A stretch of 64,000 nucleotides of DNA from Shigella phage ESH35. Positions 2 to 16,914 of this stretch are shown here, one piece after another. Position numbers and translations under genes: made by a program. The notes beneath the pieces were generated by a model. The model searched no databases, was not told the DNA's origin, and was given only the letters and a program-made list of their open reading frames with translations. The stretch is taken from the sequence record ON528745. One strand, 5' to 3'. Within the stretch, counting starts at the first letter, position 1; every line of letters begins with the position of its first letter.

Positions 2-475
2 AAGTTATCAGAAAAATATAAATTAAAGGAACTTGCTTTAATCTTTATAAGCAATTTGGTTGCTAACCAAGATGCTTGGATTGGTGACATCTCTGACGCT
101 GATGCACTTGTGTTTTATCGTGAATATATCGGACGCTTAAAACAAATTAAATTTAAGTTTGAAGAAGATATTCGCAATATTTACTATTTTAGTAAAAAAG
201 TTGAAGTTTCTGCTTTTAAAGAAATCTTTGAGTATAATCCAAAAGTTCAATCAAGTTATATTTTTAAACTACTTCAATCGAATATAATTTCGTTTGAGAC
301 GTTTATCTTGCTTGATTCGTTTTTAAATATAATCGATAAACATGATGAACAGACTGATAATTTAGTCTGGAATAATTATTCTATAAAGTTAAAGGCTTAT
401 AGAAAAATTTTAAATATTGATTCACAGAAAGCTAAAAGTGTTTTTATTGAAACTGTGAAATCTTGTAAGTATTAA
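2..475 (+). CDS. 59: Helicase-loading protein gp59, C-terminal part (5' end outside window)
   Basis: Reading frame open to window edge with no upstream stop; product ...KLKELALIFISNLVANQDAW...ETVKSCKY; sits directly upstream of gene 32 as in T-even phages. Confidence 0.8.
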   Translation, partial: KLSEKYKLKELALIFISNLVANQDAWIGDISDADALVFYREYIGRLKQIKFKFEEDIRNIYYFSKKVEVSAFKEIFEYNPKVQSSYIFKLLQSNIISFETFILLDSFLNIIDKHDEQTDNLVWNNYSIKLKAYRKILNIDSQKAKSVFIETVKSCKY

Positions 476-500
476 TTGCTTATTATAAATAGATTATAAT
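476..500 (+). promoter_or_regulatory. Gene 32 promoter cluster: MotA-box-like TTGCTTAT (476-483), late motif TATAAATA (484-491), -10 TATAAT (495-500)
   Basis: Motifs read directly from sequence upstream of gene 32. Confidence 0.5.
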
Positions 501-508
501 TATCTCAC

Positions 509-574
509 TGACCAGCTATGAGGTCATACATCGTCATAGCACCAACTGTTAATTAAATTAAAAAGGAAATAAAA
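509..574 (+). promoter_or_regulatory. Gene 32 autoregulatory translational operator (pseudoknot plus AU-rich gp32 binding site)
   Basis: Stems TGACC/GGTCA and GCTATGA/TCATAGC, then unstructured TTAATTAAATTAAAAAGGAAATAAAAATG. Confidence 0.7.
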
Positions 575-1483
575 ATGTTTAAACGTAAATCTACTGCTGA
601 ACTCGCTGCACAAATGGCTAAACTGGCTGGAAATAAAGGTGGTTTTTCTTCTGAAGATAAAGGCGAGTGGAAACTGAAACTCGACAATGCGGGTAACGGT
701 CAAGCAGTAATTCGTTTTCTTCCGTCTAAAAATGATGAACAAGCACCATTCGCAATTCTTGTAAATCACGGTTTCAAGAAAAATGGTAAATGGTATATCG
801 AAAATTGCTCATCTACCCACGGTGATTACGATTCTTGTCCAGTATGTCAGTACATCAGTAAAAATGATTTGTACAACACTGATAATAAAGAGTACAGTCT
901 TGTTAAACGCAAAACTTCTTACTGGGCTAACATTCTTGTTGTAAAAGACCCAGCTGCTCCAGAAAACGAAGGTAAAGTATTTAAATATCGTTTCGGTAAG
1001 AAAATCTGGGATAAAATCAATGCAATGATTGCAGTTGATGTTGAAATGGGTGAAACTCCAGTTGATGTAACTTGTCCGTGGGAAGGTGCTAACTTTGTAC
1101 TGAAAGTTAAACAGGTTTCTGGATTTAGTAACTACGATGAATCTAAATTCCTGAATCAATCTGCGATTCCAAACATTGACGATGAATCTTTCCAGAAAGA
1201 ACTGTTCGAACAAATGGTTGACCTTTCTGAAATGACTTCTAAAGATAAATTCAAATCGTTTGAAGAACTGAGCACTAAATTCGGTCAAGTTATGGGAACT
1301 GCTGTGATGGGCGGTGCCGCTGCAACTGCTGCTAAGAAAGCTGATAAAGTTGCTGATGATTTGGATGCATTCAATGTTGATGACTTCAATACAAAAACTG
1401 AAGATGATTTTATGAGCTCAAGCTCTGGCAGTTCATCTAGTGCTGATGACACGGACCTGGATGACCTTTTGAATGACCTTTAA
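575..1483 (+). CDS. 32: Single-stranded DNA-binding protein gp32
   Basis: 302-aa product [17 protein letters not shown]...[22 protein letters not shown] with acidic Ser/Asp C-tail and Cys/His zinc site typical of T4 gp32; AU-rich operator upstream. Confidence 0.95.
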
Positions 1484-1505
1484 TAGATTATATTACTAAT
1501 TAATT

Positions 1506-1531
1506 GGGGACCCTAGAGGTCCCCTTTTTTA
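1506..1531 (+). terminator. Rho-independent terminator after gene 32
   Basis: GGGGACC-CTAGA-GGTCCCC followed by TTTTTT. Confidence 0.75.
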
Positions 1532-1556
1532 TTTCAAAAAATTTTTTCACAAAACG

Positions 1557-1586
1557 GTTTACATCCTTGTCCTTCCATGGTACTAT
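1557..1586 (+). promoter_or_regulatory. T4 early-type sigma70 promoter
   Basis: GTTTACA -35, 17-nt spacer, TACTAT -10. Confidence 0.6.
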
Positions 1587-1629
1587 ACAACTATCGGCAA
1601 TACTGCTGATGATCAAAGAGGAAAATAAT

Positions 1630-1860
1630 ATGGCTAAAGTTGATATTGACATCGTTGATTTTGAATATATTGAAGAGATTATTCGTAATCGTTATCCTGA
1701 ACTTAGTATCACAAGTATTCATGATGATCCCAATTATTGCAATTTTTCTATTGTCATTGAAGGTCCTCTTGAAGACCTTACCCGCTTTATGGCTAATGAA
1801 TATTGCGATGGCATGGATTCTGAAGACGCAGAATTTTACATGGGACTGATTGAACAATAA
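1630..1860 (+). CDS. Hypothetical small protein (76 aa)
   Basis: ATG at 1630 preceded by AGAGGA; the longer ORF-track start at 1504 would span a terminator and promoter. Confidence 0.55.
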
Positions 1861-1906
1861 TTATCAAGGGGCTATTTGATAGCCCCGTTAAAATGAGGAA
1901 ATCAAA

Positions 1907-2293
1907 GTGGAAGTTGGAAAAACTTATATCATTAACCCTTTATTTAAAAATGACTTTGCTAACGAGTGCCGTTGCAATGTAATGATGCTAAATTTAATAG
2001 AGAAGCACGGACCTAGTTTTGTTGTAGATGAAATGGAAAGTGATGATTGTGCTGGTGAATGTGTGGTACGTGTAACTATGGAAGATGGTACTGAATACAT
2101 GGCGGGTGGCCCACTTGAGACGTATTTTGAGATTTACTCTGAAGAATTCAAATACTTTACTGAGGTAACTTTAGAAAAGCCTCAATCCGCTAATGAAGGT
2201 ATAGTTTCTGGCGTAACAAAAATTCACTGCATTGTTGACGAAAACAATGTAGATGAAATCATTGAACTTTTGCGAAAAACTTTCAAAAAGTAG
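1907..2293 (+). CDS. Hypothetical protein (128 aa), paralog of the 2352-2726 ORF
   Basis: GTG start 6 nt after GAGGA; shares GKxY...HGxSFxVxxM...DGT...YFE pattern with the next ORF. Confidence 0.55.
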   Translation: MEVGKTYIINPLFKNDFANECRCNVMMLNLIEKHGPSFVVDEMESDDCAGECVVRVTMEDGTEYMAGGPLETYFEIYSEEFKYFTEVTLEKPQSANEGIVSGVTKIHCIVDENNVDEIIELLRKTFKK

Positions 2294-2322
2294 TTTACAA
2301 CGGGCTATGGTAATGATACTAT
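2293..2322 (+). promoter_or_regulatory. T4 early-type sigma70 promoter
   Basis: GTTTACA, 17-nt spacer, TACTAT; spacer contains inverted repeat GGCTAT...ATAGCC. Confidence 0.6.
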
Positions 2323-2351
2323 AGCCTTATCAACTACATGAGGAAATTAAA

Positions 2352-2726
2352 ATGATGGAAACTGGTAAATTTTACGTATTAGACCCTGCTGCAAAAAAAC
2401 GATTCATCGCTGGTAATCCTGATGCTAATTCGTGCATGGTCAAGTTGATGGAACAACATGGCAGTTCCTTCAAAGTCCTGGATATGTGTTATATTGAAGG
2501 TGATTATTTTGTTGAAAAAGTTGAAATGAAAGATGGCACCATCCTGAATAGTATGAGTGATGATGAGTACTTTGAACTCGCTGAATGGGAATTCTGTCAC
2601 TTCCTGGAAGTTGATAGCGATGCTTCTGATGATGTTGATGATACTCAAACCATTCATGTACAGGTAAATCATAAAAATGCGGCAGAAGTCATTGCACTGA
2701 TTAAAGCAACTTTTGATATTCAGTAA
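2352..2726 (+). CDS. Hypothetical protein (124 aa), paralog of the 1907-2293 ORF
   Basis: ATG after GAGGA; own early-type promoter upstream; acidic C-terminal half. Confidence 0.6.
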   Translation: MMETGKFYVLDPAAKKRFIAGNPDANSCMVKLMEQHGSSFKVLDMCYIEGDYFVEKVEMKDGTILNSMSDDEYFELAEWEFCHFLEVDSDASDDVDDTQTIHVQVNHKNAAEVIALIKATFDIQ

Positions 2727-2732
2727 AAAGTA

Positions 2733-2762
2733 GTGTACAACTAAATGGGGCTATGATATAAT
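2733..2762 (+). promoter_or_regulatory. T4 early-type sigma70 promoter
   Basis: GTGTACA, 17-nt spacer, TATAAT. Confidence 0.6.
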
Positions 2763-2799
2763 GGTCCCATACTGAGTTACCAAATAACTGGAGAATAAA

Positions 2800-3042
2800 A
2801 TGAGATTACAACGTCAGAGCATCAAAGATTCAGAAGTTAGAGGTAAATGGTATTTTAATATCATCGGTAAAGATTCTGAGCTCGTTGAAAAAGCTGAACA
2901 TCTTTTACGTGATATGGGGTGGGAAGATGAATGCGATGGATGTCCTCTTTATGAAGATGGAGAAAGCGCAGGATTCTGGATTTATCATTCTGACGTCGAT
3001 CAGTTTAAAACTGATTGGAAAATTGTGAAAAAGTCTGTTTGA
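2800..3042 (+). CDS. Hypothetical small protein (80 aa)
   Basis: ORF with RBS GGAG upstream; downstream of an early-type promoter. Confidence 0.55.
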   Translation: MRLQRQSIKDSEVRGKWYFNIIGKDSELVEKAEHLLRDMGWEDECDGCPLYEDGESAGFWIYHSDVDQFKTDWKIVKKSV

Positions 3043-3052
3043 GGAAAATATT

Positions 3053-3408
3053 ATGTCTGACATTCGTGTAGCTGGAATTGCTCGAGTAAGTATTCGTTGC
3101 CAACTTAAAACTGCGCCCGGGACGGCTTATATTAATTTATCACACGACCTATGTTCTAGTGAAAGACCATTAACTGGTGTAATTACGTTTTACGCTGGAG
3201 TTGGCGGAAACGAATTTACTGTAGGCGAATTTGTTGGTTGTAAATTAAAAGTTCAGAAGAATGTGTTAGAACTTTTTAGCGATCTTTATGGTGATAGTGA
3301 TGAAGTTTTTGATGAAATCGCGCAAGCAGTTAACAGAGGAATGGTAACTTTAGTTAAAATGATTAAAGATAGCGGATTTGCTTCTGGCCCCTTTCAGTGG
3401 GAGGTAAT

Positions 3409-3412
<4 letters not shown>
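3053..3412 (+). CDS. Hypothetical protein (119 aa)
   Basis: ORF tightly packed after the previous gene with GAGGA RBS. Confidence 0.55.
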
Positions 3413-4235
<823 letters not shown>

Positions 4236-4254
4236 AATAACGCGCGGCGGAAAT

Positions 4255-4602
4255 ATGAATTTTAATTATTACCCTATTCTATTAGAAAAAGATGAGAAAC
4301 AGCCAAAGTGGCAGGGTCCTCAGTTTATTAAAGGTGTCTATCAATTAGTAGTTCCTAAAGACAAGATTTATAGCAGTTGTTTCACTGAATCCGCTTGTAG
4401 TATTTTCGGTAATAGTTCTCCGTATTGGAATTTTGACATAAAGCTGGATAGAAATATCGATATTTGGTTGAAAGCTATGGATATTGGTAATATCACGTTT
4501 GATGAGAATAATTATCATATTATTGGTCGCTTTTCCAAACGCGGTAAAGAATTATATTTCACGCCTGAAATTGAGAGAAAATTTGATGCTAAACCGTATT
4601 GA
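4255..4602 (+). CDS. Hypothetical protein (115 aa) in an insertion between frd and td
   Basis: ORF with upstream GGCGGAAAT-ATG; no family recognised; lies inside a 416-bp segment flanked by duplicated TAAATGAAA. Confidence 0.55.
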   Translation: MNFNYYPILLEKDEKQPKWQGPQFIKGVYQLVVPKDKIYSSCFTESACSIFGNSSPYWNFDIKLDRNIDIWLKAMDIGNITFDENNYHIIGRFSKRGKELYFTPEIERKFDAKPY

Positions 4603-4647
4603 TTATTTAGCTTCATAAAATGTATTATAATTTATATAAGGTACTAA

Positions 4648-5508
4648 ATGAAACAATACCAAGATTTAATTAAAGACATTTTTGAAAATGGCTATGAAAC
4701 CGATGACCGAACGGGCACAGGAACAATTGCTTTGTTCGGTACTAAATTGCGTTGGGATTTAACCAAAGGTTTTCCTGCAGTAACAACTAAAAAGCTCGCC
4801 TGGAATGCATGCATTGCTGAGCTAATATGGTTTTTATCAGGAAGCACAAATGTCAATGATTTGCGATTAATTCAACATGATTCATTAATTCAAGGCAAAA
4901 CAGTCTGGGATGAAAATTACGAAAATCAAGCAAAAGATTTAGGATACCATAGCGGTGAACTTGGTCCAATTTATGGAAAACAGTGGCGTGATTTTGGCGG
5001 TGTAGATCAAATTATAGAAGTTATTGATCGTATTAAAAAACTGCCAAATGATAGGCGTCAAATTGTTTCTGCGTGGAATCCAGCTGAACTTAAATATATG
5101 GCATTACCGCCTTGTCATATGTTCTATCAGTTTAATGTGCGTAATGGATACCTTGACCTTCAGTGGTATCAACGTTCGGTAGATGTTTTCCTCGGTCTTC
5201 CATTTAATATTGCATCATATGCTACGTTAGTTCATATTGTAGCTAAGATGTGTAATCTTATTCCGGGAGATTTGATATTTTCTGGTGGTAATACTCATAT
5301 CTATATGAATCACGTAGAACAATGTAAAGAAATTTTATGTCGTGAACCTATGGATTTATGCGAATTACAATTAAAATTTCCAGATGAATTTGATGAATGG
5401 GACACAGAATCGCAGGTATTTTGGTTGAGTCAATTTGCAAAGCCTCATAATTTTGTTCTTAACAACTATGAATCACATCCTCCTATTAAAGGAAAGATGG
5501 CGGTGTAA
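4648..5508 (+). CDS. td: Thymidylate synthase, uninterrupted (no group I intron)
   Basis: 286-aa continuous [29 protein letters not shown]...[11 protein letters not shown]...PIKGKMAV; TS active-site Cys motif present. Confidence 0.95.
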
Positions 5509-5528
5509 TTTTATTATTGCGAGGATAT

Positions 5529-5792
5529 ATGATTTTACGATTTAAAGATACTTCTGGTGTAGTTCTTTTTACACTTCCTAATCCAAGTGAGTTAGAAGTT
5601 CCAGGACCAAATCAGCCTATTATCATTTATGGTAAAAAGTATTATACTCATAAAATGACTCGTGAGTATTTTGATAATAAAATTTCCACAGTTAAAACTT
5701 CTTCTGATTGCTACTATGATATTACTGTTTTAACGGAACAACAATATGAAGAATTATTACCGCGCGGGCCGTCTATGCCAGGTAGTGAATAA
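5529..5792 (+). CDS. Hypothetical small protein (87 aa; start uncertain, TTG at 5517 possible)
   Basis: ATG at 5529 after GAGGA; overlaps the next ORF. Confidence 0.45.
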
Positions 5793-6072
5793 ATATAAAT
5801 CCGACTTTGATGTTAATATTCACCGCGGTACATTTTGGGGAAATTACGTCGGTAAAGATGCTGGCAGCCGGGAGGCTGCCATTGAATTATTCAAAAAAGA
5901 TTTTATACGTCGAATTAAATCCGGAGAAATAACTAAAGCACATTTAGAGCCTTTACGTGGAATGAGGCTAGGATGCACATGTAAACCAAAGCCGTGTCAT
6001 GGTGATATAATAGCTCATATAGTTAACCGATTGTTTAAAGACGATTTTCAAGTTGAGGACTTATGCAATTAA
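5746..6072 (+). CDS. Hypothetical protein with DUF4326-like Cys/His motif (108 aa)
   Basis: Product contains ...[22 protein letters not shown]... resembling the CxC...CHGD signature of DUF4326 proteins (recalled from memory); stop overlaps the nrdA start. Confidence 0.5.
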
Positions 6073-8327
6073 TTAATGTTATCAAAAGTAGTGGTGTTTC
6101 TCAGAGCTTTGACCCGCAAAAAATTATTAAAGTTTTATCTTGGGCAGCCGAAGGAACATCTGTAGATCCTTATGAATTATATGAAAATATTAAATCATAT
6201 CTCCGTGATGGAATGACCACTGATGACATTCAAACCATTGTAATTAAGGCTGCTGCGAATTCTATTTCAGTTGAAGAGCCTGATTATCAATACGTAGCCG
6301 CTCGCTGTTTAATGTTTGCTCTTCGTAAGCATGTTTACGGACAATATGAACCACGTTCATTTATTGACCATATTTCTTACTGTGTAAATGAAGGTAAATA
6401 TGACCCTGAACTGCTGTCAAAATATTCAGCAGAAGAAATTACATTTTTAGAATCAAAAATTAAGCACGAGCGGGATATGGAATTTACTTATTCCGGTGCG
6501 ATGCAATTAAAAGAAAAATATCTAGTTAAAGATAAAACCACTGGTCAAATTTATGAAACTCCGCAGTTTGCATTTATGACTATTGGAATGGCACTGCATC
6601 AAGATGAACCTGTTGATAGATTAAAACATGTTATTCGTTTTTATGAAGCAGTATCTACTCGACAGATTTCATTACCAACTCCTATTATGGCTGGTTGTCG
6701 TACTCCGACTCGACAGTTTAGTTCATGTGTTGTTATTGAGGCAGGTGATTCGCTGAAGTCTATTAATAAGGCTTCAGCTTCAATTGTTGAATATATCTCT
6801 AAACGCGCTGGAATTGGTATTAACGTTGGTATGATTCGTGCCGAAGGTTCTAAGATTGGCATGGGTGAAGTCCGCCATACTGGTGTTATTCCTTTTTGGA
6901 AACATTTTCAGACTGCTGTTAAATCATGCTCACAGGGTGGAATTCGTGGCGGCGCTGCTACTGCTTATTATCCTATTTGGCATTTGGAAGTTGAAAATCT
7001 TCTCGTTCTAAAAAATAACAAAGGTGTTGAAGAAAACCGTATTCGTCATATGGATTATGGTGTTCAGCTGAATGATTTGATGATGGAACGATTCGGAAAG
7101 AACGATTACATTACTTTGTTCAGTCCGCATGAAATGGGTGGCGAGCTTTATTATTCTTATTTTAAAGACCAAGACCGTTTCCGTGAATTATACGAAGCAG
7201 CAGAAAAAGACCCTAATATTCGTAAAAAACGTATTAAAGCCCGTGAACTATTTGAATTGCTCATGACTGAACGTTCAGGAACAGCAAGGATTTATGTACA
7301 GTTCATTGATAATACGAATAACTATACTCCGTTTATTCGTGAAAAAGCACCTATTCGTCAGAGTAACTTGTGCTGTGAAATTGCTATTCCAACAAATGAT
7401 GTGAATAGCCCCGATGCTGAAATTGGATTGTGTACTCTCTCTGCATTCGTACTGGATAATTTTGACTGGCAAGACCAAGATAAAATTAATGAATTGGCAG
7501 AAGTCCAAGTTCGTGCTCTTGATAATCTTTTGGATTACCAAGGATATCCAGTTCCTGAAGCAGAAAAAGCTAAAAAGCGTCGTAACCTCGGTGTAGGTGT
7601 TACCAACTATGCAGCTTGGCTGGCAAGTAACTTTGCTTCTTATGAAGATGCTAACGATTTAACACATGAACTATTTGAGAGATTACAGTATGGACTCATT
7701 AAAGCATCCATTAAGCTCGCCAAAGAAAAAGGACCTTGCGAATATTATTCAGACACTCGTTGGTCTCGAGGCGAATTACCTATCGACTGGTACAATAAAA
7801 AGATTGACCAAATCGCAGCTCCAAAATACGTTTGTGACTGGTCGTCGCTGCGGGAAGACCTTAAGCTCTTTGGCATCCGTAATAGCACATTATCAGCACT
7901 TATGCCATGTGAGTCATCTTCCCAAGTTTCTAACAGTACAAACGGTATCGAGCCTCCACGTGGACCAGTCTCTGTTAAAGAATCAAAAGAGGGCTCCTTT
8001 AATCAAGTCGTGCCCAATATTGAGCATAACATAGACCTCTATGATTATACATGGAAATTAGCTAAGAAAGGTAATAAACCTTATCTCACGCAGGTAGCTA
8101 TTATGCTGAAATGGGTTTGTCAATCAGCTTCGGCGAATACATATTATGACCCGCAGATTTTTCCAAAAGGAAAGGTTCCAATGTCAATAATGATTGATGA
8201 CATGCTATACGGATGGTATTATGGCATTAAAAACTTCTATTATCATAATACTCGTGATGGTTCCGGTACTGATGATTACGAAATAGAAACTCCAAAAGCC
8301 GATGATTGCGCAGCGTGTAAATTGTAA
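6063..8327 (+). CDS. nrdA: Aerobic ribonucleotide reductase large subunit
   Basis: 754-aa product with ATP-cone N-terminus and class I RNR catalytic core (NLCCEI, C-terminal CAACKL); T4 NrdA length. Confidence 0.95.
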   Translation: MQLINVIKSSGVSQSFDPQKIIKVLSWAAEGTSVDPYELYENIKSYLRDGMTTDDIQTIVIKAAANSISVEEPDYQYVAARCLMFALRKHVYGQYEPRSFIDHISYCVNEGKYDPELLSKYSAEEITFLESKIKHERDMEFTYSGAMQLKEKYLVKDKTTGQIYETPQFAFMTIGMALHQDEPVDRLKHVIRFYEAVSTRQISLPTPIMAGCRTPTRQFSSCVVIEAGDSLKSINKASASIVEYISKRAGIGINVGMIRAEGSKIGMGEVRHTGVIPFWKHFQTAVKSCSQGGIRGGAATAYYPIWHLEVENLLVLKNNKGVEENRIRHMDYGVQLNDLMMERFGKNDYITLFSPHEMGGELYYSYFKDQDRFRELYEAAEKDPNIRKKRIKARELFELLMTERSGTARIYVQFIDNTNNYTPFIREKAPIRQSNLCCEIAIPTNDVNSPDAEIGLCTLSAFVLDNFDWQDQDKINELAEVQVRALDNLLDYQGYPVPEAEKAKKRRNLGVGVTNYAAWLASNFASYEDANDLTHELFERLQYGLIKASIKLAKEKGPCEYYSDTRWSRGELPIDWYNKKIDQIAAPKYVCDWSSLREDLKLFGIRNSTLSALMPCESSSQVSNSTNGIEPPRGPVSVKESKEGSFNQVVPNIEHNIDLYDYTWKLAKKGNKPYLTQVAIMLKWVCQSASANTYYDPQIFPKGKVPMSIMIDDMLYGWYYGIKNFYYHNTRDGSGTDDYEIETPKADDCAACKL

Positions 8328-9058
8328 TGAATTATCAAAAAATCTATAATGACCTAATTTCCCGAGCTCAGGCTCGGGAATCTTTATCAGAATATAAAGA
8401 GACACATCATATAATCCCTAGATGTATGGGAGGTTCTGATGATAAGGAAAATTTAGTTGAATTAACAGCCAGAGAACATTTTATAGCTCATTTACTACTA
8501 TGTAAGATAAATGAAGGCCATTTTGGGCTTGCTTCTGCGTTAACGTTAATGGCAACAGATAAAGCTGGCAATAGAATTAATAACAGATTGTACAGCTTAC
8601 ACAGAAAATTATTTGCTAAAGCTAATTCTGAGTTCTTTAAGAAATATTGGAAAAATAATCCTCATCCTAAAGGAATGTTAGGCAAGCACCATAAAAACGA
8701 AACTAAACAGCATGTATCAAACGTGAATAGATATGCATGCCCATCTATAGAAATACATAAATTCTCATTAGATGGGGATTTCATAGAAACCTTTCACTCT
8801 ATTGCGGCAGCGTCCCGGTCAGTTAATGGAAACGGGTCAAATATCAAATATTGTGCCGAGGGTAAATTTCAATATGCTTATGGATTTAGATGGTCATATC
8901 AACTTGATGCAAAGTTTGACAAAATAAAACCAAGAGATTATAAAGGAATCCGCGGTAAGAAATGGATTAATAATGGAAGTGAATGCACGCTTATAGGTAA
9001 AGATGATATTATACCGCCAGGTTGGAAACACGGCAGAATTTTAAAGAGGAAAAATTAA
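8327..9058 (+). CDS. mobE: Freestanding HNH homing endonuclease (MobE-like)
   Basis: HNH motif ...THHIIPRCMGGSDDKENLVELTAREH... plus C-terminal IPPGWKHG module; inserted between nrdA and nrdB with ATGA/TAATG overlaps. Confidence 0.8.
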   Translation: MNYQKIYNDLISRAQARESLSEYKETHHIIPRCMGGSDDKENLVELTAREHFIAHLLLCKINEGHFGLASALTLMATDKAGNRINNRLYSLHRKLFAKANSEFFKKYWKNNPHPKGMLGKHHKNETKQHVSNVNRYACPSIEIHKFSLDGDFIETFHSIAAASRSVNGNGSNIKYCAEGKFQYAYGFRWSYQLDAKFDKIKPRDYKGIRGKKWINNGSECTLIGKDDIIPPGWKHGRILKRKN

Positions 9059-10236
9059 TGTCTACAGTTTTTAATACAAATCCAGTTGATGTTTTAAAAG
9101 AACCTATGTTCTTCGGTTCAGGTCTTGGTATTGCGCGTTACGATATTCAACGTCATAAAGTTTTTGAAGATTTAACTGAAAAGCAGTTGTCATTTTTCTG
9201 GCGTCCTGAAGAAGTAAACTTGATGATGGATGCTGCACAATTTAACAAGCTTCCTCAGTATCAGCAAGATATTTTTACTAATAACCTGAAGTATCAATCA
9301 CTTCTAGATAGCATTCAGGGTCGTGCACCGTCTGCAGTACTTATGTCATTAATTTCAGATCCAAGTCTTGATACATGGGTTGCTACATGGACTTTTAGTG
9401 AAACTATTCACAGCCGTTCATATACTCATATCATGCGAAATCTTTATACTGATCCATCAAAGGTATTTGATGAGATTGTATTAGATGAAGATATTATGAA
9501 ACGTGCTGAGTCCATTGGTCGCTATTACGATGATGTTCTTAAAAAGACCCGTGAATGGGAAAATGCTAAAGAATTTGTAGAACTAGCTAAAGAATCTCCT
9601 GATGCTGATTTTCGTTTAAATCGAGCTATTAAACAAGAAGCCGAAGCTAAACGAGCACTAATGAAATCTCTTTATCTTTGCCTCCATGTAATCAATGCAT
9701 TGGAAGCTATTCGTTTTTACGTATCTTTCGCATGTACCTTTAACTTCCATAAGAACATGGAAATCATGGAAGGTAATGCTAAGATTATGAAGTTCATTGC
9801 GCGTGATGAGCAACTTCATCTTAAAGGCACTCAATATATTATTCGTCAACTTCAACTTGGCACTGACGGTGATGAATGGGTTAAAATTGCTCAAGAGTGT
9901 GAACAAGAAGCAGTTGATATTTTCATGGAAGTTAACCGTCAAGAAAAAGACTGGGCAGTTCATTTATTTAAAGATGGCGATGTTCCCGGATTAAATACAA
10001 ATAGCATGTGGAGCTTTATTGATTACTTAACTGTATCTCGTATGAAACAGTGTGGTCTTCCATGCCCAATTACCGATGCTCCGGTTAAACATCCATATCC
10101 TTGGATTCGTGAATACCTTAATTCTGATAATGTTCAATCCGCGCCACAAGAAGTAGAACTGTCATCTTACCTTGTAGCACAGATTGATAATGATGTTGAT
10201 GATAAAGTTATGATGAGTTTTAAAAAATATTTTTAA
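9058..10236 (+). CDS. nrdB: Aerobic ribonucleotide reductase small subunit, uninterrupted
   Basis: 392-aa product from ATG at 9058 (AGAGGA RBS); di-iron/tyrosyl radical RNR R2 family; no intron. Confidence 0.9.
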   Translation: MSTVFNTNPVDVLKEPMFFGSGLGIARYDIQRHKVFEDLTEKQLSFFWRPEEVNLMMDAAQFNKLPQYQQDIFTNNLKYQSLLDSIQGRAPSAVLMSLISDPSLDTWVATWTFSETIHSRSYTHIMRNLYTDPSKVFDEIVLDEDIMKRAESIGRYYDDVLKKTREWENAKEFVELAKESPDADFRLNRAIKQEAEAKRALMKSLYLCLHVINALEAIRFYVSFACTFNFHKNMEIMEGNAKIMKFIARDEQLHLKGTQYIIRQLQLGTDGDEWVKIAQECEQEAVDIFMEVNRQEKDWAVHLFKDGDVPGLNTNSMWSFIDYLTVSRMKQCGLPCPITDAPVKHPYPWIREYLNSDNVQSAPQEVELSSYLVAQIDNDVDDKVMMSFKKYF

Positions 10237-10241
10237 GGAGT

Positions 10242-10263
10242 GGGCCGCAAGGCCCATTTTATT
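10242..10263 (+). terminator. Hairpin / probable terminator between nrdB and denA
   Basis: GGGCC-GCAA-GGCCC (GNRA-type loop) followed by ATTTTATT, abutting the denA start. Confidence 0.5.
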
Positions 10264-11851
<1,588 letters not shown>

Positions 11852-11854
11852 GTT

Positions 11855-11884
11855 GTTTACAAGTCCCTCGTGTTGTGTTATAGT
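11855..11884 (+). promoter_or_regulatory. T4 early-type promoter upstream of alc
   Basis: GTTTACA, 17-nt spacer, TATAGT. Confidence 0.6.
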
Positions 11885-11908
11885 AGTCTTACTGACATAA
11901 CATGAGGA
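11855..11908 (+). repeat. 54-bp promoter/SD-sequestering hairpin module, copy A
   Basis: Identical to 27142-27195 except one base (C/T in the loop). Confidence 0.85.
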
Positions 11909-11912
11909 CTTT

Positions 11913-12419
11913 ATGATGGATTTGCAGCTTATTACTACTGAAATGGTCGTTGAAGCATACGGTGATACTACAGATGGGATTTCTGTATTCAAAGGAAATC
12001 GTCGAGTTGGATATATCACCGATCTTAAGAAAGATTTAGCTAAGCAAGTCAAGCGGAAAACGACCATTAAAGAATATCGAAATCGTCGTCTTGAGCAAGC
12101 CCGTGATATGCTTCCTGATGCGGTTGAGGAGATGAAAGTCTTTTTAGAAAATCAACTCGCTAAGTATGATTGTGAAGTGTTTATTAATCAGACTCAACCT
12201 AATGTTCATATCAATAGCTGCAAATGCTATATCATCGTTAATCCTTTGACAGGAAAGCATCGTCTTGGAATTAGTAATCCAAATCGTAGCGCATCGGATA
12301 TGGCAGAAGATGTTGCGGCGTGCTTTAAAATTTCTAAATCTCCGGCTGAACATCATATTTTAATTAACGGGCTTGCTCAAGACGATATTATAGAGGTTAT
12401 TAAAACTTTATGCATGTAA
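11913..12419 (+). CDS. alc: Alc (host transcription shutoff on cytosine DNA)
   Basis: 168-aa ORF between rnlA and the spanin pair, position and size of T4 alc. Confidence 0.7.
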   Translation: MMDLQLITTEMVVEAYGDTTDGISVFKGNRRVGYITDLKKDLAKQVKRKTTIKEYRNRRLEQARDMLPDAVEEMKVFLENQLAKYDCEVFINQTQPNVHINSCKCYIIVNPLTGKHRLGISNPNRSASDMAEDVAACFKISKSPAEHHILINGLAQDDIIEVIKTLCM

Positions 12420-12763
12420 GTAATTTTACAGCTGGATTGCTATTACTTGTAATAGCATTTGGCGGAACATCTATTATTTTAAAAAATAAGGTAGAAAGAT
12501 TAGAAACGTCTGTTGTAGAAATTACAAAAACGGCCAATGAAAACGCCTTAGCATTAAATAATTTGCGAATTCAGTATAATTATATTGATGCGATGAATAA
12601 TAAAAATCGTGAGGCGATTGCTGCTATTGAGCGTGAAAATGAAAAACTGCGCAAAGATGCAAAGAAGGCGGATGTGGTGGCTCGTAAGCCAGGATTGGTT
12701 GAAAAACAAATCAACAACTCCTTCAACAAGTTCGCAGAAGACATCCAGGACCTTTCTAAATGA
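12410..12763 (+). CDS. pseT.3: i-spanin (Rz-like; pseT.3-like)
   Basis: N-terminal transmembrane helix (FTAGLLLLVIAFGGTSIIL) followed by coiled-coil periplasmic region; overlaps the o-spanin gene. Confidence 0.7.
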   Translation: MHVSNFTAGLLLLVIAFGGTSIILKNKVERLETSVVEITKTANENALALNNLRIQYNYIDAMNNKNREAIAAIERENEKLRKDAKKADVVARKPGLVEKQINNSFNKFAEDIQDLSK

Positions 12764-13059
12764 TTAAATTATCTGCAGTAATATTATCTATTGGTCTTCT
12801 AGTTGGTTGTTCGACAAAGCCTCTAGAAGTAAAGAAAGAAACAGTTCATCCTAATTGGCCTGTGCAAATAAAGTCATATGACGAAGCTAAACTATCTTGG
12901 CAAGTTAAAGTTATTGATGGTAAAGCTTGGGTCGGTATGCCATTTGAAGATTCCCAGGAATTTCGCATTTGGCTTAATGATGTAAAACGATATGTACATG
13001 ATCAGAAAACTATGATATGTTATTATCGTCAAGAGTTAAAAGAGGATAAATGCAAATGA
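12760..13059 (+). CDS. pseT.2: o-spanin lipoprotein (Rz1-like; pseT.2-like)
   Basis: Lipoprotein signal peptide with lipobox LLVGC at the N-terminus (MIKLSAVILSIGLLVGCSTKP). Confidence 0.75.
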   Translation: MIKLSAVILSIGLLVGCSTKPLEVKKETVHPNWPVQIKSYDEAKLSWQVKVIDGKAWVGMPFEDSQEFRIWLNDVKRYVHDQKTMICYYRQELKEDKCK

Positions 13060-13282
13060 TTTCATGGCATCAATTTGAACATCTCAAAGGATTGATTTAT
13101 GAATCCGAGATGGCTGCAATGATTTACGGACGCCAGATTCAGCGGTTAGAATCTTTACCTCCAACTAATGATGTTTTATTAGCTCAATCACGCGCTAATC
13201 TCAAAAATGAATATCAAAATAAGTGGGGTAAAGCATCTAAAGACCTGCATGATTATATTCAATCATTGGTTGAGAAAAATAA

Positions 13283-13286
<4 letters not shown>
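13050..13286 (+). CDS. Hypothetical small protein (78 aa)
   Basis: ORF in operon-like array upstream of pseT. Confidence 0.5.
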
Positions 13287-14486
<1,200 letters not shown>

Positions 14487-14487
<1 letters not shown>

Positions 14488-14684
14488 TGGCGTGGCATCA
14501 TGAAACTTGGGCTATTATTATTGTAAATAGTGGTTTAGTCGGTACTAGTAATGGGCAATTTTGTGTATTCACTAGTGAAATCAGAGCTTGGGAGGAATGC
14601 CTTAAATTAAGAGAAAAGAATCCTGATGTTGAACTAACAGTAAAGAAAACTAAACTGCCTTTACCATGGAAAACTTATGAATAA
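14487..14684 (+). CDS. Hypothetical small protein (65 aa)
   Basis: ORF in the pseT-cd small-gene array (one of five, as in T4 cd.1-cd.5). Confidence 0.5.
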
Positions 14685-14877
14685 CATAGAAAAGATTTAT
14701 CGTCTTTGTGATAAAATTGAAAAAGAAAAGAAATATCTATTTTGTTTATGGCCTATTGTTGATGGAAGAGTAGGTTTAGATGTTCTTGATTATGAAACAG
14801 AAGACAAAGTAGATGGTTCAACTTTTGATAATGCGTTGGATGTTATTGATTGGCTCGAAGAAAATTACGTGAGGTAA
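14677..14877 (+). CDS. Hypothetical small protein (66 aa)
   Basis: ORF in the pseT-cd small-gene array. Confidence 0.5.
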   Translation: MNNIEKIYRLCDKIEKEKKYLFCLWPIVDGRVGLDVLDYETEDKVDGSTFDNALDVIDWLEENYVR

Positions 14878-14879
14878 AT

Positions 14880-15155
14880 ATGTTTCCGACTTATTCTAAA
14901 ATTGTAGAAGTAGTGTTTAGTCAAATTATCGCTAATAATATGTTTGAAAAGCTTGATAACGCAGCCGAGCTTCGAATTCATGCTCAAGTGACTCATGTAT
15001 TGAACACTTTGCTTCCAGACCAGGTGGATTCTGTTGCCATTACGCTGTATCCAGGTTCCGCGCATATCATTGTCGTATTCGGTCTTGATGCTGAGTTAGT
15101 TATTAAAGGCGATATTCGTTTTGAATCGCAGACAGCAGAATTCAAAGCAATTTAA
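14880..15155 (+). CDS. Hypothetical protein (91 aa)
   Basis: ATG 14880 preceded by GAGGT; alternative upstream ATG 14850 lies inside the previous ORF. Confidence 0.5.
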   Translation: MFPTYSKIVEVVFSQIIANNMFEKLDNAAELRIHAQVTHVLNTLLPDQVDSVAITLYPGSAHIIVVFGLDAELVIKGDIRFESQTAEFKAI

Positions 15156-15157
15156 TA

Positions 15158-15187
15158 GTTTACTTTACGGTAGAGTTGTGATATTAT
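15158..15187 (+). promoter_or_regulatory. T4 early-type sigma70 promoter
   Basis: GTTTACT, 17-nt spacer, TATTAT. Confidence 0.55.
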
Positions 15188-15216
15188 AGCTCTACCAAAC
15201 AAATGAGGAAAACAAA

Positions 15217-15456
15217 ATGCTGCTAAGTGAAAAACCGATTACTGTTAAAGAATTCCAAGAAAAAGTTAAGCTATTTGCACAGGAATTGATAAATAAGGTT
15301 TCTGAACGATTTCCTGAAACATCGGTTCGTGTTATTACTGAAACTCCTCGTTCAGTATTAGTAATTGTGAATCCAGGTGATGGCGATCAAATATCGCATC
15401 TTAAATTAGATTTTGATGGATTAGTTGAAGCACAAAGGGTGTATGGCGTACTATGA
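15217..15456 (+). CDS. Hypothetical small protein (79 aa)
   Basis: ORF downstream of an early-type promoter, RBS GAGGA. Confidence 0.5.
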   Translation: MLLSEKPITVKEFQEKVKLFAQELINKVSERFPETSVRVITETPRSVLVIVNPGDGDQISHLKLDFDGLVEAQRVYGVL

Positions 15457-15791
15457 TGAATTTAACTGATATAATTGATAATTGTCTTGAAAATGATACT
15501 GGCGATCATAGAGCGCTTGACTCTGAAACAGCACAGTTCATTAGAATAACTTTAATGAATGACACTCTAGTAAATAGTATTCATCCTTCCGTATATGATG
15601 CTATTATTGTGACGAAGTATCCAGTTGAGCTTCACAAAAAGATGGTTGGCGCAATTTTTATTGATAAGAAAAACCGCTTTAAAGATGGGCAGAATATAAT
15701 TAGTTCTGTTATTAAAAGTATAACTAAACTTCGTCACGAAATTTATCGTGTTGAAACTGCTAAATCTGCTTATCTGGTGATTATGAAATGA
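15453..15791 (+). CDS. Hypothetical protein (112 aa)
   Basis: ORF overlapping neighbours by 4 nt. Confidence 0.5.
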   Translation: MMNLTDIIDNCLENDTGDHRALDSETAQFIRITLMNDTLVNSIHPSVYDAIIVTKYPVELHKKMVGAIFIDKKNRFKDGQNIISSVIKSITKLRHEIYRVETAKSAYLVIMK

Positions 15792-16369
15792 AAGCGAGTA
15801 CAGTACTTCAAATTGCATATTTAGTATCGCAGGAATCAAAATGTTGCTCCTGGAAGGTAGGAGCAGTAATTGAAAAGAATGGACGTATTATTTCTACCGG
15901 ATATAATGGTTCACCTGCTGGTGGTGTGAACTGTTGTGATTATGCTGCTGAGCAAGGTTGGTTGTTGAATAAGCCTAAACACACTATCATTCAAGGCCAT
16001 AAACCTGAATGCGTATCATTTGGTTCAACTGATCGTTTTGTCTTGGCGAAAGAACATCGTAGCGCTCACTCTGAATGGTCGTCTAAAAATGAAATTCATG
16101 CTGAACTAAATGCAATTTTGTTTGCTGCACGAAATGGTTCTTCTATTGAAGGTGCTACTATGTATGTAACACTTTCTCCTTGTCCAGATTGTGCAAAAGC
16201 GATAGCTCAATCTGGTATTAAAAAACTGGTTTATTGCGAAACATACGATAAAAATAAACCTGGCTGGGATGATATTCTGCGAAATGCAGGTATTGAAGTG
16301 TTTAATGTTCCTAAGAAAAACTTGAATAAGTTAAACTGGGAAAATATCAACGAATTCTGCGGTGAATAA
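15788..16369 (+). CDS. cd: dCMP deaminase
   Basis: 193-aa product with cytidine/deoxycytidylate deaminase zinc motifs (HAE ... PCPDC). Confidence 0.9.
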   Translation: MKASTVLQIAYLVSQESKCCSWKVGAVIEKNGRIISTGYNGSPAGGVNCCDYAAEQGWLLNKPKHTIIQGHKPECVSFGSTDRFVLAKEHRSAHSEWSSKNEIHAELNAILFAARNGSSIEGATMYVTLSPCPDCAKAIAQSGIKKLVYCETYDKNKPGWDDILRNAGIEVFNVPKKNLNKLNWENINEFCGE

Positions 16370-16605
16370 TGAAATTTCGTTTGGTAAAGCTTACAGCAAT
16401 TAGTTCTTATTCTAACGAGAACATCTCGTTTGCTGTAGAGTATAAGAAATATTTTTTCTCTAAATGGAAACAGTATTATAAAACTGATTGGACTAGTATT
16501 GATAGACCATATAGTTGGAAATCTGATTTAGAAAAATGCCAAAAATTACTTTCCACCCTTAAAGAACGTGGAACAACTCATATTAAAACTGTAATAGGTA
16601 AATAA
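16369..16605 (+). CDS. Hypothetical small protein (78 aa)
   Basis: ORF between cd and gene 31. Confidence 0.5.
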   Translation: MKFRLVKLTAISSYSNENISFAVEYKKYFFSKWKQYYKTDWTSIDRPYSWKSDLEKCQKLLSTLKERGTTHIKTVIGK

Positions 16606-16914
16606 ATGAAACTGACAACTGAGCAGAAAGTAGCAATTCGCGAAATTTTGAAAACCAAATTGTCCATGGGTGTTTCAAACGTAGTTTTTGAAAAGTCTGA
16701 TGGTACTATTCGTACTATGAAAGGTACTCGTGATGCAGACTTTATGCCAACCATGCAAATTGGTAAATTGACTGAATCTACTCGGAAAGAATCTACTGAC
16801 ATGATTCCAGTATTTGATGTTGAACTTGGCGCATGGCGAGGTTTTTCTATTGACAAATTGATTTCTGTTAATGGTATGAAAGTTGAGCATTTGCTTCAAT
16901 TTATTGGTAAATAA
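16606..16914 (+). CDS. Hypothetical protein (102 aa)
   Basis: ORF between cd and gene 31. Confidence 0.5.
   Translation: MKLTTEQKVAIREILKTKLSMGVSNVVFEKSDGTIRTMKGTRDADFMPTMQIGKLTESTRKESTDMIPVFDVELGAWRGFSIDKLISVNGMKVEHLLQFIGK

Follow-up and report, generated by a model that had tools for sequence, protein, structure and literature searches.

Among described genes, the closest counterpart of the open reading frame (ORF) analysed here is nrdA.1 of bacteriophage T4, part of the "dark matter" of the best-studied phage. In the T4 record (NC_000866.4) this gene spans 327 nt, of which 47 are shared with nrdA.2 and 10 with nrdA, and its product (NP_049846; UniProt P32279; gene T4p235) is catalogued under Pfam DUF4326 and phrog_464, the latter annotated as "unknown function". 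DUF4326 proteins have been predicted to process the ribose-linked phosphates of ADP-ribose derivatives (PMC9503650; PMC7824862) and to connect NAD signalling with the modification of DNA (PMC7824862). An earlier reading of the sequence alone had stated that these proteins have no established function. This agrees with the searchable literature, which gives computational predictions alone and reports a biochemical activity for no DUF4326 protein.

The window, a stretch of 64,000 nt from Shigella phage ESH35 (ON528745), belongs to a Tequatrovirus (T4-like phage) genome; of the 516 phage records matched by a 1-kb query around the ORF, 503 are 95-99% identical to it. The ORF lies at 5746..6072 on the + strand and encodes, from an ATG, a product of 108 aa followed by a stop codon, coordinates and length that the sequence-only reading had given and that the ORF list bears out. 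It is preceded by frd (3654-4235), by an ORF of 115 aa (4255-4602), by td (4648-5508) and by nrdA.2 (5529..5792, ATG at 5529), which encodes an 87-aa DUF5496 protein (Pfam PF17600, E=1.4e-58) and spans 264 nt in RB51 and T4. Downstream follow nrdA for the class Ia ribonucleotide reductase large subunit (6063..8327), a gene for an HNH/NUMOD1 homing endonuclease (8327-9058) and nrdB (9058-10236). All of these genes are on the + strand; frd, td and nrdB were recognised from the ORF list and profile matches, and nrdA from the ORF list and the annotation of matching phage records. The two overlaps described earlier are exact, as nrdA.2, read in another frame, ends at 5792 (47 nt, 5746..5792) and nrdA starts at 6063 (10 nt).

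ESH35 shares the synteny td-nrdA.2-nrdA.1-nrdA with T4. It differs in that its td and nrdB are free of introns, in the additional 115-aa ORF between frd and td, and in the larger size of the HNH endonuclease between nrdA and nrdB. The product is identical to T4 NrdA.1 at 103 of 108 positions (95%); the five substitutions are confined to residues 2-12, within the overlap with nrdA.2, and from residue 13 to residue 108 the two proteins do not differ. Phage ECP2301 encodes a product 100% identical to that of ESH35 (tblastn), and the match to phrog_464 reaches E=2e-48, so that the protein belongs with the T4 nrdA.1 orthologs by identity as well as by position. Given this degree of identity, the matching T4 annotation and the identical ECP2301 protein, we equate the ORF with the catalogued T4 gene nrdA.1 and regard it, with near certainty, as its ortholog and as a genuine protein-coding DUF4326 gene. 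The feature is therefore already known, and the earlier reading of it, which did not name the T4 gene, is correct without being new; from the ESH35 stretch itself nothing new emerges, the identical protein being in GenBank and the family assignment in Pfam.

Domain assignment and start codon

NrdA.1 consists of a single DUF4326 domain (residues ~11-97). It matches Pfam PF14216 with E=1.3e-21 and 77.5 bits, against a cut-off of 25, and residues 12-90 align with profile positions 2-81 of 82; NCBIfam and PADLOC give no match. Among 1.84 billion cluster representatives, a profile search recovered 4,933 relatives at E<=1e-3, and 50 sequences are close relatives of NrdA.1. The family was said to be common in phages, which is consistent with tblastn matches to DUF4326 in 1,957 of 50,697 phage records (~4%), and it extends to giant viruses and bacteria, with thousands of sequence clusters.

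The Cys/His segment on which the first reading was based is present at residues 75-96 (window 5968-6033). It contains the core C77-T-C79-K-P81-K-P-C84-H85-G86-D87 (5974..6006). Conservation was counted in the best 150 of the 4,933 relatives, taken as diverse representatives, and in a set of 26 T4-like homologs. Among the 150 representatives, N33, C77, C79 and C84 are present without exception and P81 and H85 in 149, followed by R27 (147), G32 (146), N15 (143), D22 (142), G86 (141) and D87 (136). NrdA.1 has every one of these family-wide residues. Within the T4-like set C77, C79, P81, C84, H85 and G86 never vary, D87 hardly does, and N15, D22, R27 and G32-N33 are likewise fully or almost fully conserved. 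The profile match and the retention of the cysteines in homologs were the two points on which the DUF4326 reading could have failed, and the assignment accordingly stands. The T4 subgroup departs from the rest of the family at two positions: the usual W-G-N-P-F is replaced by W-G-N-Y-V (P34 to Y; proline occurs in 132 of the 150 relatives), and C11, invariant in 26/26 T4-like homologs, is specific to T4-like members, whereas threonine is usual at this position elsewhere.

In RB51 and some other records, nrdA.1 is annotated from an in-frame GTG (5785..5787), which yields a gene of 288 nt, a product of 95 aa and an overlap of 8 nt. We favour the ATG at 5746, on account of the domain start in relatives, the start of the profile matches, the modelled strand beta1 and the conservation of C11 and of the ATG itself; translation is unlikely to begin at the GTG at 5785. 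In stand-alone relatives the protein starts 1-4 residues ahead of the C/T-x-V-V-N strand (residues 11-15 in NrdA.1), and the profile matches of the 150 representatives begin at positions 9-12. Initiation at the GTG would delete residues 11-13 of this conserved strand and cut strand beta1, placed at residues 12-15 by the structure model. The 47-nt overlap with nrdA.2 encodes residues 1-10, a poorly conserved tail, together with C11 and the start of beta1. The DNA alignment shows the ATG to be kept in ESH35, T4 and RB51. A weak GGAA lies 7 nt 5' of the ATG, and the sole purine-rich stretch ahead of the GTG is AGG at 5780-5782, just 2 nt away.

Modelled fold and the Cys3His cluster

An AlphaFold2 model of NrdA.1 built on a 104-sequence alignment has a pLDDT of 90.6 and a pTM of 0.83, and its five models are concordant; residues 1-10 have a mean pLDDT of 73. 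An earlier model from T4-like sequences alone was weaker, with a pLDDT of 83 and values of 63-70 for the remaining four models. The model contains three short strands (residues 12-15, 23-24 and 74-77), helices at 36-39, 42-59, 64-70, 85-96 and 103-106, and a loop at 78-84. According to this prediction, the domain folds into a compact alpha/beta structure and carries a Cys3His cluster on the loop that leads from strand beta3 (74-77) to helix alpha3 (85-96): C77 is placed at the end of the strand, C79 and C84 on the loop, and H85 at the start of the helix.

The cluster thus brings together four conserved residues of ligand type (C77, C79, C84 and H85). Three invariant cysteines and a histidine would, in our interpretation, be no less compatible with metal binding than with a nucleophilic thiol; metal binding would imply a different chemistry. 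NrdA.1 does not resemble any known zinc-finger, zinc-ribbon or treble-clef fold. No DUF4326 protein has a solved structure: searches of PDB sequences by phmmer and with profiles found no relative at E<0.1, and Foldseek against the PDB gave no match.

Expression, genomic company and candidate functions

In time-resolved omics data, T4 NrdA.1 (P32279) is detected both as RNA and as protein (PMC9697503 supplements 4 and 6). Its class, "early RNA, late protein", is shared by nrdA, nrdB and nrdB.1, whereas nrdA.2 and td are classed as "early RNA, middle protein" (PMC9697503). The co-expression with nrdAB that the sequence-only reading had recommended checking is therefore found for the T4 ortholog in the form of a common temporal class (PMC9697503). 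That reading had also suggested translational coupling with the nucleotide metabolism operon, which in this stretch is the nucleotide-precursor operon frd-td-nrdA-nrdB. As read from the sequence of the nrdA.1/nrdA junction (6055..6072), such coupling is plausible, since the Shine-Dalgarno sequence of nrdA (GAGGA, 6055-6059) falls within the terminal part of nrdA.1, ahead of the nrdA ATG at 6063, and nrdA.1 stops (TAA, 6070-6072) 10 nt past the nrdA start; the T4 timing class is also consistent with it. Sigma-70-like sites are no commoner than in shuffled sequence (28 vs 29.8), a MotA-box-type middle-promoter pattern does not occur on the + strand from 310 to 16900, and no promoter-like signal specific to nrdA.1 was found, for which reason we assume co-transcription from upstream. 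A CRISPRi-ART knock-down of T4 nrdA.1 was scored "Not Fit" with a log2FC of -0.12, i.e., no fitness effect in the laboratory host, and nrdA, nrdB, td and frd of T4 likewise showed no fitness effect (PMC11879866 supplement 15).

Fusions and neighbours in other genomes provide insight into what DUF4326 might do. Among the 49 longest relatives, all multidomain proteins, SLOG-type domains occur in 15 (seven YAcAr, six mSLOG and two DprA-like), NADAR in six (five NADAR and one DarT1-type NADAR), TIR in one and an RNA polymerase domain in one; tandem proteins with two or three DUF4326 domains also exist. This census independently reproduces observations of the Aravind group. The fusions to SLOG, NADAR and TIR, together with a weak alignment to DUF488 that we describe below, agree with the published prediction that DUF4326 is an enzyme that processes phosphates in the metabolism of NAD/ADP-ribose or of nucleotides.

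A back-translated motif scan of viral contigs yielded 120 loci, of which 116 are true DUF4326. Their direct neighbours comprise dCMP deaminase in three cases, RtcB, family A polymerase, DNA methylase, NADAR and 5'-3' exonuclease in two each, and DUF488, SLOG and thioredoxin in one each. A universal operon partner was sought among the direct neighbours of the 116 loci and not found, the largest family accounting for 3 of 150 proteins. This heterogeneity suggests early DNA and nucleotide metabolism modules as the general setting of the domain, without a universal partner.

We consider that NrdA.1 may be a small stand-alone DUF4326 enzyme, made from the ATG at 5746 inside the frd-td-nrdA-nrdB operon. 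Its pocket would be formed by N15, D22, R27, G32-N33 and D87 together with the Cys3His residues on the strand-to-helix loop, a loop whose position would correspond to that of the active-site loop in the protein-tyrosine-phosphatase/rhodanese superfamily and in RapZ-C. Such an enzyme would bind a phosphorylated ribose moiety and remove or transfer the phosphate, with a nucleotide, a breakdown product of NAD or ADP-ribose, or a nucleic-acid end as candidate substrates, and the Cys3His cluster would serve either as a metal (zinc) site shaping the loop or as a thiol catalytic centre. For T4-like phages this would mean an accessory function made along with ribonucleotide reductase and dispensable in laboratory hosts. 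Its benefit might plausibly lie in the salvage or tidying of ribose-phosphate by-products, or in countering host responses based on NAD or ADP-ribose.

The statement that joins the identity of the gene with a small phosphate-processing enzyme appears to us evenly balanced. The biochemical reading proper, an enzyme acting on a phosphorylated ribose moiety, we hold more tentatively, at somewhat short of even. It is supported by the occurrence of NADAR, SLOG and DUF488 as separate genes directly next to DUF4326. On the other side stand the loop, which runs C-X7-H-G-D in place of the C-X5-R motif, and the heterogeneity of direct neighbours across the 116 viral loci. Furthermore, no SLOG, NADAR or Macro domain is fused to the T4 protein or encoded next to it, so that the link to ADP-ribose is carried over from distant relatives.

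Some of the same neighbours would also suit an activity on DNA or RNA ends, in modification or repair, rather than on small molecules, in the manner of cassettes that combine DuOB, SLOG-DUF4326 and DUF488. A DuOB (dual OB-fold) gene adjoins a fused DUF4326 protein in 6 of the 116 viral loci, and in a prophage the order is DuOB, then DUF488, then an mSLOG-DUF4326 fusion. For part of the clade that includes DUF4326, Burroughs and Aravind reportedly predicted, in 2023, the processing of DNA ends. The RtcB RNA ligase, family A DNA polymerase, 5'-3' exonuclease and DNA methylases among the neighbours point in the same direction, as does the predicted connection of NAD signalling with the modification of DNA (PMC7824862). 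The DuOB-linked proteins, however, all bear an extra N-terminal domain of ~180 aa, whereas the T4-like gene encodes a solo domain in an operon that contains no DuOB, SLOG or DUF488 partner. T4 moreover has dedicated end-healing enzymes in PseT, RnlA and RnlB, which counts against end processing by NrdA.1. On balance we regard a role on nucleic-acid ends as unlikely, if worth weighing.

The position of nrdA.1 directly ahead of nrdA, with the 10-nt overlap, raises the possibility of an accessory to the reductase, that is, a small metal- or redox-active Cys3His protein that gives electrons, metal or thiol reduction, by analogy with the small proteins YfaE, NrdH and NrdI of cellular nrd operons. 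It would suit this role that T4 NrdA.1 belongs to the temporal class of NrdA and NrdB and that the four Cys/His residues show little or no variation. Comparable placements occur elsewhere. In other T4-like genera the gene follows nrdB, with the order nrdA-nrdB-DUF4326-denA in phage Margaery (Pseudotevenvirus); Asteriusvirus, an unrelated jumbo phage, has it flanked by nrdD and nrdG, which encode the anaerobic class III enzyme; and in two uncultured viral contigs it is found 0.3-1 kb from a reductase large-subunit gene. The reductase large subunit is also the commonest neighbour family within three genes (8/116 loci). DUF4326 proteins encoded beside a reductase resemble one another no more than they resemble the rest (31-55% identity), hence their placements look independent. 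The same lack of mutual closeness leads us to reject a dedicated reductase-associated DUF4326 subfamily.

Several observations nevertheless weigh against an accessory. A reductase gene lies within ~1.2 kb in only 6 of the 116 randomly sampled viral loci, four of which are T4-like, and the DUF4326 genes of Det7 and nt-1 have none nearby. These neighbour counts are raw, and reductase genes share early nucleotide-metabolism clusters with many small genes. In the 49 multidomain relatives the domain is fused to SLOG, NADAR and TIR and never to reductase or redoxin domains, and NrdA.1 has no similarity to the thioredoxin, glutaredoxin, flavodoxin or ferredoxin families (NrdH, NrdI, YfaE and NrdC types). 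The link between DUF4326 and ribonucleotide reductase is therefore best called suggestive, and we retain it as the main rival, not as our explanation; an accessory role for NrdA.1 appears to us more doubtful still than one on nucleic-acid ends. A longer shot again is the extension of this idea to the family, in which DUF4326 would be an unrecognised accessory of ribonucleotide reduction, a metal- or thiol-dependent Cys3His enzyme recruited independently to different reductase classes. If this were true, these classes would include the aerobic Ia (T4-like phages, before nrdA or after nrdB), and the anaerobic III (Asteriusvirus), with other large-subunit genes in the two uncultured viruses, and the protein might clear a ribose-phosphate species that is damaged or inhibits the reductase, or else maintain the redox or metal centre of that enzyme.

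A non-catalytic role is considerably less probable. NrdA.1 would then be a binder or adaptor like the small-RNA-binding C-terminal domain of RapZ, and might control the translation of nrdA or take a nucleotide as its ligand. RapZ is its best structural match, the catalytic C-X5-R loop is absent and nrdA.1 overlaps the ribosome-binding site of nrdA. Yet an invariant pattern of polar and Cys/His residues, maintained over thousands of clusters, is what active or metal sites typically show; the fusion partners are enzymatic domains, and most DUF4326 members are not beside reductase genes. Finally, that this small ORF, overlapped at both ends, is a chance frame or a decayed remnant between td and nrdA has a negligible probability and is refuted by the Pfam match (E=1.3e-21), by the complete identity of residues 13-108 with T4, by the retention of every motif residue in other phage lineages down to 31-55% identity, and by the detection of the T4 protein by mass spectrometry (PMC9697503).

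The published prediction for the family concerns the processing of ribose-linked phosphate in virus-host conflicts centred on NAD and ADP-ribose. Produced alongside ribonucleotide reductase in a phage for which genetics are at hand, the T4 ortholog is a convenient entry for testing this prediction, and work on a T4-like NrdA.1 would at the same time show whether the Cys3His cluster binds a metal.

Relation to DUF488, RapZ and other families

Burroughs and Aravind are said to have defined, in 2023, a RapZ-C/DUF488/DUF4326 clade within the rhodanese-phosphatase superfamily. In our comparison, the half of DUF488 (PF04343; "Active DUF488-N3" PF22751) that consists of a helix, a strand, the C..P..CH motif and a further helix can be aligned with DUF4326, whereas the N-terminal halves give no alignment. 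The hhalign comparison covers the C-terminal 59 columns with E=3.1e-4 and a probability of 39%, the DUF488 profile being of low diversity (66-87% identity), and it pairs C77 with C114, P81 with P119, C84 with C122 and H85 with H123 (DUF4326 and DUF488, respectively). The two families differ within the motif. The DUF488 loop is one residue longer (C114..C122, against C77..C84 in NrdA.1), CHRR replaces CHGD, and the position of C79 is taken by Glu or His, depending on the placement of the gap. A DUF488 query against PDB sequences found no match. In a Pantoea prophage, a DUF488 gene adjoins an mSLOG-DUF4326 fusion, and the C-terminal motif of its product, LLCSEHKPHHCHRR, is visibly like the DUF4326 Cys motif. 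As far as the sequences go, we take this as weak positive evidence for a relationship between DUF4326 and DUF488.

NADAR (PF08719; PDB 8bau, 2b3w) was considered as a further relative, but homology is rejected, as hhalign gives E=0.21 and there is no Pfam match; judged by sequence comparison, NADAR is a partner domain of DUF4326 and not a relative.

The canonical phosphate-binding loop C-X5-R(S/T) is absent from NrdA.1, in which C77-TCKPKPC-H85-G-D gives C-X7-H with no Arg after the His. From RapZ-C and from the protein-tyrosine and dual-specificity phosphatases, NrdA.1 is further set apart by the much smaller size of its domain and by two extra invariant cysteines. The similarity to the RapZ C-terminal domain (PDB 5o5q) stays below the level that would prove homology. 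In the model, C77 ends a central strand and is followed by a loop and a helix, an arrangement expected of the rhodanese-phosphatase superfamily. With respect to its own family NrdA.1 is an ordinary member of the large DUF4326 group, and the modest lead that it offers is the recurrent placement of such genes beside different classes of reductase.

Start codon of nrdA.1 and naming of its homologs

In phage RB51 and in similar records, nrdA.1 is annotated from an internal GTG (in RB51 at 3486-3773 of locus L001, which corresponds to window positions 5785-6072). This start shortens the first conserved strand of the protein, and the ATG upstream of the annotated GTG is intact in RB51. The gene nrdA.1 varies most in the 47 nt that it shares with nrdA.2 (window 5746-5792). 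This overlap has 7 nucleotide differences in 47 nt, and all five amino-acid differences between NrdA.1 of the window and that of T4 fall within it.

DUF4326 homologs in several phage records (H65, H82 and H84) are named "putative NrdA protein" or [quoted passage not shown], and phrog_24867 likewise carries the label "ribonucleotide reductase NrdA-like". The homologs misnamed in this way lack a reductase domain. Such labels are an error of name propagation, and their source is apparently the gene name nrdA.1.

ORFs between the nucleotide metabolism genes

Between frd and td the window holds an ORF of 115 aa (4255-4602, plus strand; phrog_1928), for which no Pfam match was found. In contrast, the corresponding interval of T4 has no gene, because frd and td abut there. 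The RB51 record annotates the homologue of this ORF as "flanked by 9 bp repeat", which suggests that the ORF is a small mobile insertion.

The gap between nrdA and nrdB is occupied by a homing endonuclease of 243 aa with HNH and NUMOD1 domains (8327-9058, plus strand; phrog_655, E=7e-58), the ATG of which overlaps the nrdA stop codon, while its own stop codon overlaps the ATG of nrdB (TAATG). In T4 the same gap instead holds mobE, which is shorter, together with nrdB.1. Within the endonuclease ORF, about 30 nt 3' of the nrdA stop codon, a GC-rich hairpin with a 9-bp stem is followed by a T-rich tract (8359-8380, plus strand). This hairpin may serve as a terminator or have a regulatory role; hairpin/T-tract sites of this kind are no more numerous in the region than expected by chance.

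DUF4326 in other contexts and comparison with T4

Elsewhere, DUF4326 occurs in tandem proteins, with three domains in P0074 (352 aa) and two in P0079 (324 aa), and in fusions. A Pantoea prophage (locus L027, 297-1977, minus strand) encodes, next to a terminase gene, a dual OB-fold protein (DuOB), then a DUF488 protein of the active N3 subclade and then an mSLOG-DUF4326 fusion; of the 116 viral loci, 6 have DuOB beside a DUF4326 fusion protein. T4 lacks this cassette, which represents a separate system type. T4 also differs from the window in its td and nrdB genes, both of which contain group I introns, with I-TevI and I-TevIII, whereas the window copies of td (4648-5508, plus strand) and nrdB (9058-10236, plus strand) are uninterrupted.
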